In this document: positions 3,120 through 62,241 of the stretch, piece after piece | Position numbering within the stretch: the first letter of the stretch is position 1 | Layout of the letters: the number at the start of each line of letters is the position of its first letter | Source: Gammaproteobacteria bacterium | Lineage (GTDB): Bacteria; Pseudomonadota; Gammaproteobacteria; Ga0077554; Ga007554 | Reading direction: 5' to 3' | Assembly (NCBI GenBank): GCA_040183005.1 | Contig: JAMPIW010000009.1 | Span: 50,876-114,875 of the forward strand | DNA length: 64,000 nt | Notes under the pieces: generated by a model | The model's input: only the letters and a program-made list of their open reading frames with translations | The model's database searches: none | Told to the model about the DNA's origin: nothing | Program-made: the position numbers and the translations under genes

Positions 3120-3415
3120 GCGACGTTGAGATCAAACCGTTAGGGGATGGCAATTTTTTTCTGTCCGGCGTGCTGACCTTCGACACCGTACCCGCCCTGT
3201 GGCGCCAGAGCGCCGCGCAGTTTAACAATGCTGATGCACTTACGCTGGACTTGCAGGGGATTACTCATACCGATAGCGCCGGTCTTGCCCTGCTCATAGA
3301 GTGGATGCGTGCCGCCCACAGCCGGAACAAAACCATTGCCTTCAGAAATATCCCTCCCCAAATGCTGGCTATCGCCAAAGTCAGTGGCGTGGAGCAGATC
3401 CTCCCGCTTTTGTAG
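3116..3415 (+). CDS. mlaB: MlaB (STAS-domain protein)
   Basis: About 99 aa STAS-like sequence (LTLDLQGITHTDSAGLALLIEW). ATG at 3116 overlaps the mlaC stop. Confidence 0.65.
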   Translation: MSDVEIKPLGDGNFFLSGVLTFDTVPALWRQSAAQFNNADALTLDLQGITHTDSAGLALLIEWMRAAHSRNKTIAFRNIPPQMLAIAKVSGVEQILPLL

Positions 3416-3471
3416 CGGTGTGGGGGGTTATTAAGTTCCAGGTTCAACGCCATGCTCTTTATATGTTTGAT

Positions 3472-4792
3472 CAGAAGTGTCCGGTAATTTAATTGAATAG
3501 ATTCAATTGGTTATTGTCTTTCTGCATGCTCATTTGCGTCTCCGCATTTTTAAGTAATTGATCGAGTGGCGTTTTCTCGAAAAGAGTCAGGCTCAAAATC
3601 TGTAGGATTGTGTAAAGCGAAGCCTCGGTATTGAGCCGCTTTTTCACGATGGCGACCAAGACGTAAACCGCGATGGCGATCCATATTTGCGTCTTGACTG
3701 CATTCTCGGTGGTGCCATAGAACCGCTTGATTCGAAGATGCTGTTTGATCCACTTGAAGAATAGCTCGACCTGCCAGCGGCAACGATAAAGCTGAGCGAT
3801 GGTCAGCGCAGGCAGGTCGAAGTTGTTGGTCAGAAAGACCAGAAACCTGTCGTGTTCGGCATCGTAGAACTTGATGCGTCGCAGGTGCTGCGGGTAATCC
3901 TTGCTGGCCTTGCGAGCAGTCAATGCAATGGTCTGGTCGCAGCGCAGTCCAGTGGACTTGTCCACGGTGCGAGAGTAGACGCGACGAAAGAGCAGATTGG
4001 ATTTGCCACGGATGACAAAGAACGCCTGTGCTTGATGCAGGGTGAACCAGCGAGCGAAGTCGGTGAAGCCACGATCCATGATGTAAAAGCTGCCGGCTTC
4101 GGGTATCAGGATATCGAGCACATTGACCTCGTGCATCTTGCCATCGCTGATGTGGATGAAGGTTGGAATGTTGCCGCGCAGGTCGAGCAGCGTATGCATC
4201 TTGACGGCAGCTTTGGTGGAGCGGAAGCGTGCCCACGGAAAGACGCTCAAGCACAGGTCGATGGTCGTGGTATCGAGTGCGTAGACCGTCTGTTCCAGTT
4301 CGACCGCAAAGCTGTCGCTGGCGTAAAGCTTTCTGGCGGTCTGGATTAAGCTCATCGCGAAATCCGCGTAGATGCGACAGTCGCGTTGCTCGTTGGCATC
4401 GGCCAGCGTGCTCTTGGCGATGTTGCCTCGTATGCCCAAGTGATAGAGCTTGGCTTGGTGGGCGCGCAGACAGGTTTCGATGTCGCGCAGGCTTTCGCGG
4501 TAAGTCAGCTGCGCGAACGCCATGCAGAGAAATTGATCGAGATGCGAAAAAGTCTTGGTGGGATATTTGGAAGGGTAGCGCTGCACGCAGCGACGGAATG
4601 TGTGAAGGGGCAAATGCTCCATGAGTTGTGCGAACACCAACTGGCCTGAATACATGACGGAAACTCCTGGGGGGAAAGCCCCAGTTTCCCAAAAAATTCA
4701 CGTTCAAGTCGGTGACACCCCTAAACACACACTTTCCTATTCAACATCATCATGTTATATAGCCGTCTTTGCGAAATTGCCGGACACTTCTG
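3472..4792 (-). mobile_element. IS4-family insertion sequence, copy 1 (1321 bp)
   Basis: 17-bp terminal inverted repeats CAGAAGTGTCCGG.../...CCGGACACTTCTG. Flanked by the 9-bp direct repeat ATGTTTGAT at 3463-3471 and 4793-4801. Nearly identical to the copy at 60763-62083. Confidence 0.85.
3489..4655 (-). CDS. IS4-family DDE transposase (DUF4372-type N-terminus)
   Basis: 388-aa ORF with N-terminus MYSGQLVFAQLMEHL...DQFLCMAFAQLTYRESLRDIE typical of IS4/DUF4372 transposases. Identical to the second copy except one residue. Confidence 0.85.
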   Translation of the reverse strand: MYSGQLVFAQLMEHLPLHTFRRCVQRYPSKYPTKTFSHLDQFLCMAFAQLTYRESLRDIETCLRAHQAKLYHLGIRGNIAKSTLADANEQRDCRIYADFAMSLIQTARKLYASDSFAVELEQTVYALDTTTIDLCLSVFPWARFRSTKAAVKMHTLLDLRGNIPTFIHISDGKMHEVNVLDILIPEAGSFYIMDRGFTDFARWFTLHQAQAFFVIRGKSNLLFRRVYSRTVDKSTGLRCDQTIALTARKASKDYPQHLRRIKFYDAEHDRFLVFLTNNFDLPALTIAQLYRCRWQVELFFKWIKQHLRIKRFYGTTENAVKTQIWIAIAVYVLVAIVKKRLNTEASLYTILQILSLTLFEKTPLDQLLKNAETQMSMQKDNNQLNLFN

Positions 4793-4841
4793 ATGTTTGA
4801 TACAATAATCAAAATTGGTATACGAAAGCAGAGGGCTTCAA

Positions 4842-12891: not shown

Positions 12892-13491
12892 TCACTCCCT
12901 CTGCTTCCCCCCGATCCTGTCTTCCTCCCCCCTGACCAAACGCTGGATATTGCCGCGGTGGCGCCATAACAGCAAGGCGCTCATTACCGTCGTCATGGCG
13001 ATCAGCTCGGGCGCGGGACGTATCAGCCATACGTACACCGGGGCGAGGAGCGCCGCGCTCAGTGCCGCGAGCGAGGAATAACGGAATATCTTGGCCACCA
13101 ACAGCCAGGTAGCGAGCGCTGCCAGCCCGACCATCCACGACATCCCCAACAATACACCGAGCGCCGTCGCTACCCCCTTGCCGCCACGGAAGCCAAAGAA
13201 GACGGGGTAGAGATGCCCGAGGAAGGCGGCGATGCCCGCCAGTGCAAGAGTTGCGTCGTCCATGCCCAGCGCACTCGCAGCAATCATGGGGACAACTCCC
13301 TTGAGCATGTCCCCAAGCAGCGTCAGCGCGGCAGCCTTCTTGCCGCCCAGCCGCAGCACATTGGTTGCGCCAGGGTTGCCCGAACCTTGGGTGCGTGGAT
13401 CGGGTAACCCCATGATCTTGGAGGTGATGATGGCGGTGGATAAAGAGCCCAGCAAATAGGAAAAAACGATCAGGGGAATGGCGGCGGTCAT
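12892..13491 (-). CDS. plsY: Glycerol-3-phosphate acyltransferase PlsY
   Basis: 199 aa membrane protein with the PlsY motif GSGNPGATNVLR. Confidence 0.9.
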   Translation of the reverse strand: MTAAIPLIVFSYLLGSLSTAIITSKIMGLPDPRTQGSGNPGATNVLRLGGKKAAALTLLGDMLKGVVPMIAASALGMDDATLALAGIAAFLGHLYPVFFGFRGGKGVATALGVLLGMSWMVGLAALATWLLVAKIFRYSSLAALSAALLAPVYVWLIRPAPELIAMTTVMSALLLWRHRGNIQRLVRGEEDRIGGKQRE

Positions 13492-13500
13492 GGGATATTA

Positions 13501-13765
13501 GAGCCTGTCTGTGAATAAATCATCCCTGCGACGGAGGCCGGTTTTGCGCAGGGCAAGGAAGGCTGAGCGTAGTGTGCTTGTTGCACATGAGTGAAGCGTG
13601 ACGCCGCACTGCGCAAAACCGACCCCGTCCCTTCGGGTTGCGCCCCAAAACACGCCATGCGGCGTTGCTCGCCGCTTATTTGGAACAACCAAACTGCGCA
13701 GCTCGCGCCTTGCCTGGCGTGTTTTGGGGCAGCAACGCAGGGATGATTTATTCACAGATAGGCTC
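13501..13765. repeat. MITE-like element with 30-bp terminal inverted repeats
   Basis: GAGCCTGTCTGTGAATAAATCATCCCTGCG at 13501-13530 is the reverse complement, with one mismatch, of 13736-13765. The two arms enclose about 205 bp of GC-rich noncoding DNA. TTA sits on both flanks. Confidence 0.55.
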
Positions 13766-13905
13766 TTAGTGTAGTATGTGAACCCGAATGCTTCATAAAT
13801 TCGGGTTAGGTCTCTTAAAAATCGCATTCATGCTTTTTTTAAGATCACCCTATATCGAGAGCCTCCGATTTACCCAGAGATCTCTGCCAAAGATTGTTTT
13901 TGTAA

Positions 13906-14277
13906 TTGCGGACGTATTTCATGGACATTATATATCTTCGCGACCTGCGGATCGAGACCGTTATCGGCATCTATGACTGGGAACGGCGCATTAAACAAAC
14001 CCTCATCCTCGACATCGAAATGGCGACGGATATCCGCAAGGCCGCGCAGACAGACAGCATCGAAGACACCCTTAATTACAAAGCTGTGGCGAAGCGCCTC
14101 ATCGAGTTTGTCGGCAACAGCGAATTTCAGCTGGTCGAAACGCTGGCTGAGCGCGTTGCTGAAATTGTGCTGAACGAATTCAATGTGCCCTGGCTACGCC
14201 TGCAAGTCAACAAGCAGGGTGCGGTGCGCGGCGCGCGCGATGTCGGTGTGATTATCGAGCGCGGCGAGCGAGATTGA
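13906..14277 (+). CDS. folB: Dihydroneopterin aldolase
   Basis: 123 aa beginning MDIIYLRDLRIETVIGIYDWER. Confidence 0.9.
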   Translation: MRTYFMDIIYLRDLRIETVIGIYDWERRIKQTLILDIEMATDIRKAAQTDSIEDTLNYKAVAKRLIEFVGNSEFQLVETLAERVAEIVLNEFNVPWLRLQVNKQGAVRGARDVGVIIERGERD

Positions 14278-15451: not shown

Positions 15452-15583
15452 GTCCACGAAAGTCACGAAAAAACACGAAAATATTCAAATACATATCGCG
15501 ATTTTACTTGCCACCCATCTGGTGAATTACTGAAGCAATCCATGCTTTTGTTTTATTTCGTGAATTTTGTGTTTTTCGTGGAC
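15452..15583. repeat. CACGAAA-iteron inverted-repeat element, copy A (degenerate)
   Basis: Each arm carries three 9-bp CACGAAARN units (left arm GTCCACGAAAGTCACGAAAAAACACGAAAATA; right arm is the imperfect reverse complement). A perfect 10-bp GTCCACGAAA/TTTCGTGGAC stem closes the two ends, with about 70 bp between them. Confidence 0.5.
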
Positions 15584-19085: not shown

Positions 19086-19137
19086 GATTTAGCCACAGAG
19101 CACACAGAGGTCACGGAGAAAACGTTCTTGAGATTGA

Positions 19138-19947
19138 TTAACAAACTCTGTGTCCTCTGTGGCTAATGTCTAAGGTAATTTCTGCTTCCATAAACGTGAC
19201 AGCATACCCTGAGAGAAGCACGCGGTCAGCTTTCACCTCGCAGGCGATGTTACCGCCACGCCTGGAAACCTGCTTGGCGCTCAGGGTGTTCTTACCAAGT
19301 TTATTGGCCCAATACGGCGCAAGTTCACAATGAGCGGAGCCTGTGACGGGGTCTTCGGGGACACCGTATTTGGGCGCAAAGAAACGGCTGACAAAATCGA
19401 CATCCATGCCGGGCGCGGTGACAATCACGCCACGTAAATCAAGCTGGCTCAGCAAGGTATGGTTTGGCGCTATTGCACGAACCGTCGCTTCGCTGTCGAA
19501 CACGGCCAGGTAATCGTCGGCTGACAACACCTCGACGGGCCGCTGGCCGAGACCTTCAATTAATGCCTCTGGTATAGCGCATGGTCTTGGCGGGAGGGAG
19601 GGGAAGTTCATCTCCAACAGATCCCCCTTTCGCCTTACGACAAGATCGCCGCTACGTGTCTCAAAGGGGATGGACTGCTTGGAATAGCCAAGAATTTCAA
19701 AAATGACATGGGCCGTTGCCAGAGTTGCGTGGCCGCAAAGATCAATTTCCTTGACTGGCGTAAACCAGCGCAGGTTGAACCCCTTTGCAGAAGGCACAAA
19801 GAAGGCCGTCTCGGATAAATTGTTTTCCCCCGCAATGGCTTGAAGAAGACCGTCGTCCAACCAGCTTTCCAAAGGGCATACGGCAGCCGGATTTCCCTCG
19901 AATACACGGGATGCAAAGGCGTCTACTTGGTATTGTTTGATTTTCAT
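19138..19947 (-). CDS. PhzF-family isomerase-like protein
   Basis: 269 aa with PhzF/YddE-like motifs (FEGNPAAV...LSETAFF). Confidence 0.75.
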   Translation of the reverse strand: MKIKQYQVDAFASRVFEGNPAAVCPLESWLDDGLLQAIAGENNLSETAFFVPSAKGFNLRWFTPVKEIDLCGHATLATAHVIFEILGYSKQSIPFETRSGDLVVRRKGDLLEMNFPSLPPRPCAIPEALIEGLGQRPVEVLSADDYLAVFDSEATVRAIAPNHTLLSQLDLRGVIVTAPGMDVDFVSRFFAPKYGVPEDPVTGSAHCELAPYWANKLGKNTLSAKQVSRRGGNIACEVKADRVLLSGYAVTFMEAEITLDISHRGHRVC

Positions 19948-40533: not shown

Positions 40534-40689
40534 ATCCACGAAAAACACGAAAGGCACGAAAACATGGGCAAGGTTGTTGGCGCAACAATGCGCCTGGGTT
40601 TGCTAGTCAACTTCAGCTGCTATCCGAAAGCAACCGTCGAACGGATTGTGCTATGGAGCTTTTTCGTGCCTTTCGTGTTTTTCGTGGAC
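40534..40689. repeat. CACGAAA-iteron inverted-repeat element, copy B
   Basis: 29-bp arms ATCCACGAAAAACACGAAAGGCACGAAAA at 40534-40562 and TTTTCGTGCCTTTCGTGTTTTTCGTGGAC at 40661-40689, an inverted repeat with one mismatch. Each arm is three 9-bp CACGAAA units; the spacer is 98 bp. Confidence 0.6.
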
Positions 40690-60585: not shown

Positions 60586-60762
60586 GACATGAACTCCTCA
60601 TTTTAGTTTAAGGCCGCGCACGCAGCATTCATGTATACCTGTGTATCCTGGCAAAGGATGGCGATTTTGTGTTACGGGGCCATAACGGAATGATGAATTT
60701 TTCTTTACAGCGCGGTGTGACGTTGGACTAAACACACTGGAGTAAATGTTAATATTCTGATT

Positions 60763-62083
60763 CAGAAGTGTCCGGTAATTTAATTGAATAGATTCAATTG
60801 GTTATTGTCTTTCTGCATGCTCATTTGCGTCTCCGCATTTTTAAGTAATTGATCGAGTGGCGTTTTCTCGAAAAGAGTCAGGCTCAAAATCTGTAGGATT
60901 GTGTAAAGCGAAGCCTCGGTATTGAGCCGCTTTTTCACGATGGCGACCACGACGTAAACCGCGATGGCGATCCATATTTGCGTCTTGACTGCATTCTCGG
61001 TGGTGCCATAGAACCGCTTGATTCGAAGATGCTGTTTGATCCACTTGAAGAATAGCTCGACCTGCCAGCGGCAACGATAAAGCTGAGCGATGGTCAGCGC
61101 AGGCAGGTCGAAGTTGTTGGTCAGAAAGACCAGAAACCTGTCGTGTTCGGCATCGTAGAACTTGATGCGTCGCAGGTGCTGCGGGTAATCCTTGCTGGCC
61201 TTGCGAGCAGTCAATGCAATGGTCTGGTCGCAGCGCAGTCCAGTGGACTTGTCCACGGTGCGAGAGTAGACGCGACGAAAGAGCAGATTGGATTTGCCAC
61301 GGATGACAAAGAACGCCTGTGCTTGATGCAGGGTGAACCAGCGAGCGAAGTCGGTGAAGCCACGATCCATGATGTAAAAGCTGCCGGCTTCGGGTATCAG
61401 GATATCGAGCACATTGACCTCGTGCATCTTGCCATCGCTGATGTGGATGAAGGTTGGAATGTTGCCGCGCAGGTCGAGCAGCGTATGCATCTTGACGGCA
61501 GCTTTGGTGGAGCGGAAGCGTGCCCACGGAAAGACGCTCAAGCACAGGTCGATGGTCGTGGTATCGAGTGCGTAGACCGTCTGTTCCAGTTCGACCGCAA
61601 AGCTGTCGCTGGCGTAAAGCTTTCTGGCGGTCTGGATTAAGCTCATCGCGAAATCCGCGTAGATGCGACAGTCGCGTTGCTCGTTGGCATCGGCCAGCGT
61701 GCTCTTGGCGATGTTGCCTCGTATGCCCAAGTGATAGAGCTTGGCTTGGTGGGCGCGCAGACAGGTTTCGATGTCGCGCAGGCTTTCGCGGTAAGTCAGC
61801 TGCGCGAACGCCATGCAGAGAAATTGATCGAGATGCGAAAAAGTCTTGGTGGGATATTTGGAAGGGTAGCGCTGCACGCAGCGACGGAATGTGTGAAGGG
61901 GCAAATGCTCCATGAGTTGTGCGAACACCAACTGGCCTGAATACATGACGGAAACTCCTGGGGGGAAAGCCCCAGTTTCCCAAAAAATTCACGTTCAAGT
62001 CGGTGACACCCCTAAACACACACTTTCCTATTCAACATCATCATGTTATATAGCCGTCTTTGCGAAATTGCCGGACACTTCTG
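60763..62083 (-). mobile_element. IS4-family insertion sequence, copy 2 (1321 bp)
   Basis: Same TIRs as copy 1. One SNP relative to copy 1 (3659 A versus 60950 C). Flanked by the 9-bp direct repeat ATTCTGATT at 60754-60762 and 62084-62092. Confidence 0.85.
60780..61946 (-). CDS. IS4-family DDE transposase (copy 2)
   Basis: 388 aa, identical to copy 1 except L to V at one position. Confidence 0.85.
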   Translation of the reverse strand: MYSGQLVFAQLMEHLPLHTFRRCVQRYPSKYPTKTFSHLDQFLCMAFAQLTYRESLRDIETCLRAHQAKLYHLGIRGNIAKSTLADANEQRDCRIYADFAMSLIQTARKLYASDSFAVELEQTVYALDTTTIDLCLSVFPWARFRSTKAAVKMHTLLDLRGNIPTFIHISDGKMHEVNVLDILIPEAGSFYIMDRGFTDFARWFTLHQAQAFFVIRGKSNLLFRRVYSRTVDKSTGLRCDQTIALTARKASKDYPQHLRRIKFYDAEHDRFLVFLTNNFDLPALTIAQLYRCRWQVELFFKWIKQHLRIKRFYGTTENAVKTQIWIAIAVYVVVAIVKKRLNTEASLYTILQILSLTLFEKTPLDQLLKNAETQMSMQKDNNQLNLFN

Positions 62084-62241
62084 ATTCTGATTTTTTTTGA
62101 CAACGAACCATCCCGGCAATTATCGTACCGGCTGCTCATTGATGGATGATCCTGAAAACGGCAGGGAGCATCCCAATACACTATTTCTTCAGATAACCAC
62201 CGGCGAGGGATCGTCTTTATGAAAAAGACAGAAAAAATCCC

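Follow-up and report, generated by a model that had tools for sequence, protein, structure and literature searches.

A probable IS5-type MITE family of uncultured Gammaproteobacteria, found upstream of plsY, and the conserved fold of its core

Described miniature elements and the anatomy of the plsY-site element

The IS5-derived MITEs of bacteria and the Tourist MITEs of eukaryotes (PIF/Harbinger, PHIS) are the described systems closest to the element analyzed here, which lies between plsY and folB in a 64-kb stretch of gammaproteobacterial DNA (64,000 nucleotides, referred to below as the window). The likeness covers its small size (267 bp) and lack of any gene, its terminal inverted repeats (TIRs) of about 30 bp, the outer bases of which resemble IS5-family ends, its dispersed copies and deletion derivatives, and a core unrelated to a transposase gene. 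TWA and C-TNA-G duplications have been reported for the IS5-related PHIS superfamily (PMC4482050), and the three-base TNA/TWA flanks of the present element, preceded by C/T and followed by G/A, are of the same kind (PMC4482050). The element differs from these MITEs in that the duplication is identical in only half of the copies and in that the fold of the core is conserved across subfamilies with different ends.

The Tn3-derived inverted-repeat miniature elements (TIMEs) of Pseudomonas and its relatives are about 250 bp long and carry long terminal repeats, which are of the Tn3 type and 38-39 bp in length, along with 5-bp duplications (PMC4133298). Although the size and the long terminal repeats are similar here, 5-bp direct repeats were found in only 0-1 of 22 copies, and the ends of the sister subfamily described below match those of the IS5 family and not those of the Tn3 family. 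REP/BIME sequences and RAYT-mobilised REPINs are also extragenic, hairpin-forming, multi-copy repeats with compensated stems, but REPINs are pairs of REPs of about 25 nt lacking long terminal repeats and TNA flanks, whereas the present element has 30-nt IS5-related ends and a 205-bp core, and shows no similarity to the E. coli repeats. The Rickettsia palindromic elements (RPE) and the QMITEs of Coxiella are palindromic repeats tolerated in or beside genes, as is one of our copies (locus L022); unlike them, the present family shows no systematic in-frame insertion, its net insertion being 268 bp and its open frames occurring at chance level. The Correia elements of Neisseria (CREE/NEMIS) form long hairpins which are cleaved by RNase III and alter the expression of neighbouring genes. 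The present element resembles them as a palindromic MITE close to genes, of the kind co-transcribed with them, but Correia elements measure 100-155 bp and have a TA duplication and different repeats, whereas here the core has three helices and only 3-4 of 22 copies are flanked by TA at both ends.

The original prediction described a GC-rich, non-coding core with further inverted repeats, enclosed by 30-bp TIRs with one mismatch, between the divergent genes plsY (minus strand) and folB (plus strand). The gene context and the repeats were both recovered, and the features of the region are as follows.

12892-13491, minus strand: plsY (PF02660), a neighbouring gene outside the element; 8 nt separate its ATG from the A-side element end
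13498..13500, no strand: left flanking TTA, read from the sequence as a putative copy of a 3-bp target-site duplication
13501..13530, plus strand: left terminal inverted repeat GAGCCTGTCTGTGAATAAATCATCCCTGCG, found by repeat search; its outer 9 nt resemble IS5-family ends
13531..13629, plus strand: hairpin A, with a long stem, an internal loop and an apical stem-loop; covariation in helix 2
13630..13636, plus strand: central mini-hairpin and junction (CCCTTCGGG region), helix 5; invariant columns in alignment A2
13637..13735, plus strand: hairpin B, resembling the reverse complement of hairpin A, with a stem sequence that differs by compensated changes
13736..13765, minus strand: right terminal inverted repeat, with one mismatch relative to the left arm
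13766..13768, no strand: right flanking TTA, read from the sequence as a putative copy of the target-site duplication
13921-14277, plus strand: folB (PF02152, 118 aa), the divergent gene on the other side, starting 154 nt beyond the B-side element end

The repeat search in the window gave 31-nt arms (13500-13530 and 13736-13766, 97% complementary), which are the predicted 30-bp repeats with an outer A/T added; A13500 could belong either to the duplication or to the inverted repeat. The sole mismatch places G13507 opposite T13759 (...CCTGTC... on the left, ...CCTATC... on the right in reverse complement). The 31-mer has no second occurrence within the 64-kb window, where 0 matches are expected from shuffles, and the MITE is present there in a single copy. 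The G+C content of the core is 61.5%, as compared with 39.5% in the remainder of the plsY-folB spacer and 56.8% in the window, and two inner inverted repeats with 19-nt arms were detected in it (13536-13554/13606-13624 and 13642-13660/13712-13730). With a length of 267 bp, the element is of MITE size (short, less than about 600 bp). Stop-free frames are no commoner in it than in random or random-palindromic sequences of equal composition: most of the copies carry one of 88-90 codons, but so do 28-92% of the random and random-palindromic trials. Since open frames are thus as frequent as chance predicts, and three does not divide the net insertion of 268 bp, a translated, in-frame element of the RPE type was rejected.

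The predicted single-strand fold consists of an outer stem of about 36 bp bearing two hairpins of about 90 nt and a tiny central hairpin. It is alike for both strands of the element, and the folding energy of the whole element is -174.5 kcal/mol as RNA (z = -15.4) and -104.2 kcal/mol as DNA (z = -14.5). When the right half is reverse-complemented, it can be aligned with the left half, and the alignment extends to the loops of the inner hairpins; the inner stems differ by compensated changes.

Dispersed copies, target sites and empty alleles

In the species-representative genome collection, a 20-mer taken from the TIR matched 26 loci. These belong without exception to three MAGs of uncultured Gammaproteobacteria, Ga0074134 (about 18 loci), NC_groundwater_614 (6) and ND4_Bin_8 (3-4), and many of the matches form inverted pairs with a spacing of about 225 nt. 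Scanning of metagenomes yielded matches in the source metagenome of Ga0074134 as well as single copies with 94% (L053) and 71% (L028) identity, while the metagenome matches in L033, L037, L043, L044 and L048 were discarded as chance matches in unrelated, partly coding DNA. Using BLAST and nhmmer, 23 non-redundant complete copies were identified, together with truncated copies, internal-deletion derivatives and solo TIRs. The pairwise identity between copies ranges from 88 to 98% (median 93%), and the terminal-repeat arms covary within copies; no two copies are identical, which was counted against the MITE reading and gives no sign of current activity. The original prediction had left the existence of further copies to be checked: more than 20 are dispersed in the three MAGs and the source metagenome, the window itself holding one. 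Comparison with phage records and E. coli genomes revealed no similarity, no tRNA-like gene was found in the element, and the literature searched offered no description of this MITE family.

Decay products were observed at L004 7060-7097, L015 478-525, L021 6450-6480 and L026 2274-2309; their forms include a hairpin of about 60 bp made up of the two terminal repeats alone (L004), other internal deletions and solo repeats. For some loci, the MAG and the metagenome assembly of the same population show different deletions (L017/L042, L019/L045, L025/L050), which suggests either polymorphism or trouble in assembling the palindrome. Many copies lie at contig ends, and the MITE thus breaks assemblies in this clade. 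At one genomic site, two MAGs carry the element in opposite orientations (L001 1575-1841 and L005 5860-6126), the two copies showing 253/267 identities when one is flipped and 168/267 when they are colinear. This may reflect more than one insertion into a single TAA, or else inversion combined with homogenisation. Since the L001 copy is most similar to a paralogue from the same genome (97.8%) and not to the L005 copy, independent insertions into one TAA are at least as likely as an in-place inversion.

The presence of the element between plsY and folB is polymorphic. The spacer is devoid of it in L055, L056 and L073, and measures 124-125 bp in two relatives, the PlsY proteins of which are 95% and 93% identical to that of the window. 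The empty spacer reads ...ACTACACTAAAATATCCCATG and, just before plsY, ...ACATACTACACTAAAATATCCC-ATG; on the plsY strand, the filled site of the window reads ...ACTACAC-TAA-[element]-TAA-TATCCCATG and, up to the plsY start, ...ACATACTACAC-TAA-[GAGCC...GGCTC]-TAA-TATCCC-ATG. A clean TAA duplication at this site needs an ancestral A-run two bases shorter than that of both empty alleles, and the length of this run varies in the relatives (1 A in L058, 4 in L055 and L073). The same plsY start codon is called in the relatives lacking the element, and the MITE is dispensable for plsY and folB. More than 20 dispersed copies together with empty sites in relatives point to a mobile element and not to a local regulatory palindrome.

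In L058 (PlsY 93% identical), where the MITE is also absent, the spacer contains another palindromic insertion of about 170 bp (about 2310-2480) with the imperfect inverted ends TGCTGTGTCACAAAGC / GCTTTATGGCACAGTA. The spacer of the window contains a further 26-28-bp hairpin (AACCCGAAT...ATTCGGGTT, 13779-13806), which is absent from L055 and L073 and is a second small palindromic insertion. In view of the L058 insertion and of this extra 26-bp hairpin, the plsY-folB spacer is a place where small palindromic elements settle. In contrast to these insertions, the palindrome at 13813-13844, with 15-nt arms (TCTTAAAAATCGCAT / ATGCTTTTTTTAAGA), is shared by the spacers of L055, L058 and L073, in which it is conserved.

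Possible effects on plsY expression were also considered. No sigma-70-like promoter was found anywhere in 13350-14000, and an outward promoter inside the terminal repeat was rejected. The element contains weak terminator-like hairpins, one of them on the plus strand, and the repeat end offers only AGG (..ACAGGCTCT) as a weak, putative Shine-Dalgarno sequence. An upstream mini-ORF coupled to plsY, running from an ATG in the repeat to a TGA overlapping the plsY ATG, exists in the window and in none of the other copies, and was dismissed as a coincidence.

The flanks were analyzed in 22 copies oriented by means of their asymmetric core. They read T-N-[AGAGCC...GGCTCT]-N-A, with position -2 occupied by T in 22/22 copies and position +2 by A in 20/22, and show a preference for a pyrimidine at -3 and a purine at +3. 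When GAGCC...GGCTC is taken to be the element proper, TNA stands on each side, and this is the sole register with direct-repeat support. The Y-T-N-A-R pattern matches the PHIS-type duplications (PMC4482050). TNA is identical on both sides in 11 copies, including TTA/TTA in the window and one TGA/TGA, while in 9 of the 22 copies the middle base is complementary (TGA/TCA, for example), which extends the palindrome. The possible target-site duplication that the original prediction saw in the TTA on both flanks of the window element fits this pattern. A TNA duplication may later have been "corrected" within the palindrome, or another mechanism may be at work. An exact duplication could not be read from the L012/window and L002/window pairs, which are too diverged or have the site occupied by another element.

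Conserved fold, sister subfamily and IS5-family ends

When searched without the repeats, the core matched unannotated intergenic sequences in plasmids of Azotobacter chroococcum, Pseudomonas aeruginosa and Halomonas. These sister copies are full elements of equal length and architecture, with a different terminal repeat (CTA followed by GGGTCTGTTGACGTTTTGACGC), and they sit in CTAG, TTAG and CTAA. Their core is about 70% identical to that of the window element in the BLAST-aligned part, and the identity is 60-63% over the whole element in alignment A2, which contains 20 copies (15 close ones, L028 and four of the sister subfamily).

RNAalifold predicted 96 pairs on alignment A2, 54 of which show at least one double compensatory change. 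These changes affect 16 of the 23 pairs of helix 2 (hairpin A) and 12 of the 28 pairs of helix 6 (hairpin B). Paired cells amount to 97.8%, as against 36-44% when the partners are slid by 1-3 columns, and 0/500 shuffles reach any of the five measures, in a shuffle control that ignores the relatedness among the sequences. The junction sequences (GCGACGG..., CCCGTCCCTTCGGGTTGC and GCAACGC) are invariant across the subfamilies, whereas the helices vary. The fold of the core is kept by compensatory change between subfamilies with different IS5-family ends; no report of this was found in the literature on IS5-type MITEs, and to our knowledge there is none. The compensation is almost exclusively from one Watson-Crick pair to another and symmetric on both strands, which a DNA palindrome undergoing gene conversion or template switching would also give. 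No Rfam 15 family matched any of the subfamilies, the only scores being sub-threshold ones with miRNA precursors (generic hairpins).

The sister TIR GGGTCTGTTGACGTTTTGACGC is identical at 20/22 positions to the ends of an IS5-family IS present in the same A. chroococcum strain (L067). Ends of this type also occur on 862-bp ISs in Aeromonas caviae (L069, 2501-3362) and P. avellanae (L070). The ISs bearing them encode a 249-aa transposase scoring 268 bits on NF033580 ("IS5 family transposase"), and their interior is unrelated to the MITE core. In L069, the flanks of the IS (2470-2500 and 3363-3375) are mutually reverse complementary (GATTGC ... GCAATC) around CTAG; judging from this sequence, the Aeromonas IS may have inserted into a palindromic target or another repeat.

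The TIR of the window element is more distant: its outer 9 nt (GAGCCTGTC) agree with the IS5-family ends (GGGTCTGTT / GGGGCTGTT) at 6/9 positions, and the inner part of the repeat is unrelated. GRRBCTGTY is common to the window TIR and to the sister and IS5-family ends, and this outer motif alone is shared (GAGCCTGTC vs GGGKCTGTT). The IS5 link of the window element rests mainly on the homology of its core with that of the sister subfamily. Partner ISs were searched for using tblastn with IS5-family transposases in the window and all the loci, BLAST with the TIR on plasmids, and a TIR pattern scan on viral contigs; no IS with the window subfamily's own TIR was found in the window, about 70 fetched loci, the PLSDB plasmids or IMG/VR. 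The check for an autonomous IS with matching TIRs, suggested along with the original prediction, was thus positive in the case of the sister subfamily, which has IS5-family counterparts, and negative in that of the window subfamily's TIR. The only IS in the window is the following.

3458-4794 and 60749-62095: insertion sequence of about 1.3 kb in two copies, with inverted ends (...ATCAGAAGTGTCCGGTAATTT)

It encodes a 388-aa transposase of the IS4 family (NF033592), and since its ends are unrelated to those of the MITE, it was rejected as a partner.

Start-proximal insertions and the possible nature of the element

An element end was found 2-12 nt upstream of a start codon at 8-9 of the 23 loci. 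The genes, distances and ends involved are as follows.

lolD-like: 2 nt, A-side end
pgsA: 3 nt, A-side end
trkA: 3 nt, A-side end
dnaB: 4 nt, A-side end
holC: 4 nt, A-side end
rsxG: 7 nt, A-side end
plsY: 8 nt, A-side end
dsbC: 11 nt, B-side end
mupP/gph-like: 12 nt, B-side end

The eight starts other than that of plsY were checked against NCBIfam profiles, and all of them except that of mupP/gph begin at residue 1-6 of the best full-length models of their families. Of the intergenic TNA or YTNAR sites in the window, only 9-12% are found at 16 nt or less from a start codon, and relative to this baseline the start-proximal copies are about fourfold in excess (binomial probability about 1e-4). 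All 7/7 cases at distances of 8 nt or less involve the A-side end (nominal p = 0.016); read-through transcription in these seven cases would copy the strand without the weak plus-strand terminator-like hairpin. Copies do not always have the same orientation with respect to their neighbouring genes, those of P. aeruginosa and L022 being reversed. Target preference, selection, and tolerance via RNA folding and RNase III processing are candidate causes of the excess, the last of which is suggested by likeness to the Correia elements.

In L022, the copy at 2377-2644 has its B-side end (2364-2377) in the 5' end of a mupP/gph-like HAD phosphatase gene, the product of which lacks the first 6-15 residues relative to the family profiles. 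An ATG in the terminal repeat (ATG ATT TAT TCA CAG ACA GGC TCT) is in frame with this gene; from its sequence, the element may have taken the place of the gene's 5' end, and its ATG may serve as the start codon.

In our view, 13501-13765 is very probably a non-autonomous MITE of the IS5 / PIF-Harbinger type inserted upstream of plsY. The non-autonomous transposable element proposed in the original prediction finds support in the multi-copy, dispersed occurrence of the sequence, its absence from the same spacer in two relatives, its TNA-type flanks and the IS5-family ends of its sister; the sequence is neither single-copy nor conserved in place, and the MITE reading stands. The two alternatives put forward at the same time fared less well: the structured sRNA locus has no Rfam match, and the regulatory palindrome for plsY/folB is at odds with the relatives lacking the element at this site. 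The MITE is ordinary selfish DNA and represents a new family, carried by uncultured Gammaproteobacteria, of a well-known kind of element. In the putative mechanism, a DDE transposase of the IS5 family / PIF-Harbinger type would bind and cut at the TIRs of about 30 bp. This enzyme would be provided in trans by an insertion sequence located at another place in the genome and itself ending in GAGCCTGTCTGTGAATAAATC. Insertion would occur into Y-TNA-R sites, as presumed for the TTA that reads TAA on the plsY strand and precedes the plsY start by 6-8 nt. The core of about 205 bp, a hierarchical palindrome in which a long outer stem carries two hairpins and a mini-hairpin, would not have come from a transposase gene, and the lineage would have kept it while its ends changed to suit different IS5-type transposases. 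If transcription reaches plsY from upstream, the element would form a tightly folded leader of 270 nt, the closing stem of which would bring the flanks together; this long perfect duplex would probably be a substrate for RNase III, and the predicted cleavage may explain why insertions beside start codons are tolerated.

What counts against the MITE reading, besides the lack of an IS with the window subfamily's own TIR in the sequences searched and the TNA identical on both sides in only 11 of the 22 copies, is the fold, since a cut-and-paste DDE mechanism has no obvious need for a strongly conserved internal structure. A reading that we hold to be unlikely is that the four-way-junction core is a functional module, either an RNA insulator or processing cassette or a DNA structure promoting transposition, which lets the MITE settle, without lethal effect, 2-8 nt upstream of the starts of essential genes (plsY, pgsA, dnaB, holC, trkA) and has been kept across gammaproteobacterial orders while the TIRs were exchanged for those of different IS5-family transposases; by analogy, an RNA module of this kind might be a fold cleaved by RNase III that keeps its own flanks together. 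It is very improbable that we are dealing with a mobile palindrome transposed in folded, single-stranded form by an enzyme other than a DDE transposase (HUH/RAYT-like or a tyrosine recombinase) which recognises the conserved junction, the TIRs mattering as a stem. Such an enzyme would fit a fold conserved beyond what a DDE MITE needs (54/96 pairs, 97.8% of cells, invariant junction), the lack of any autonomous IS with matching ends in the window, the roughly 70 loci, PLSDB and IMG/VR, and the half of the copies without an identical duplication, where the flanks extend the palindrome instead. However, the sister ends are IS5-family DDE ends (20/22, in the same strain) with an outer motif common to the window's, the TNA / Y-TNA-R flanks fit IS5/PHIS targets, REP-like features and similarity to E. 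coli repeats are absent, and the arms of an inverted repeat can co-evolve by gene conversion or template switching in the absence of selection on the fold.

That the sequence is, or has become, a structured RNA, be it a leader acting in cis, a cassette for processing or insulation, or an sRNA gene, with a fold kept for RNA function and only secondary mobility, is, if anything, still harder to credit. The very stable fold predicted on both strands, the strong covariation across subfamilies 60-70% identical and the verified starts lying 2-8 nt from the same A-side end in the 7/7 close cases all argue for it, whereas the absence of Rfam matches and of any promoter-like site in or near the element, the strand-symmetric, Watson-Crick to Watson-Crick compensation expected of a DNA palindrome, the orientation to genes varying in the P. 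aeruginosa copy and L022, and the functioning of the same gene without the element in relatives argue against it. The probability of a locus-specific regulatory palindrome of the plsY-folB region (operator or bidirectional terminator) is close to nil: its position between divergent genes and its weak terminator-like hairpins would suit that role, but the same sequence is present at more than 20 unrelated loci, the empty spacers of the closest relatives contradict it, and the conserved part of the spacer is the other palindrome, at 13813-13844. If the spacer does hold a true regulatory palindrome or bidirectional terminator, the latter is a better candidate than the MITE.

For annotation purposes, the MITE should be masked as a repeat and not labelled as a promoter element, an sRNA or a plsY/folB operator. 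Two of its traits are worth following up, the compensated core fold across subfamilies and the approximately fourfold excess upstream of starts, including those of essential genes. If the fold does make start-proximal insertions harmless, the family would be a natural transposon lowering the cost to its host through RNA structure, and would provide a ready test system for translation initiation beside a very stable helix.

The window contains other palindromic repeats. The element at 49190-49387 is also MITE-like, with 34-nt inverted arms starting with GAACCTGTTCACG and TCA on both sides; its end GAACCTGTT has the IS5-like outer motif common to the repeat of the plsY-site MITE, and it has relatives in L004, L014, L032, L038 and L042. 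An inverted repeat at 19089-19166 has 21-nt arms (TTAGCCACAGAGCACACAGAG) 36 nt apart, and no further copy of it was seen in the fetched loci. The 154-bp element at 40535-40688 has perfect 28-nt inverted arms (TCCACGAAAAACACGAAAGGCACGAAAA), a partial copy at 15543-15583 and relatives in L021 and L046. It occupies an intergenic site that holds a plsY-type MITE in the MAG Ga0074134 (L002), so that the two lineages carry different elements between the same pair of genes.
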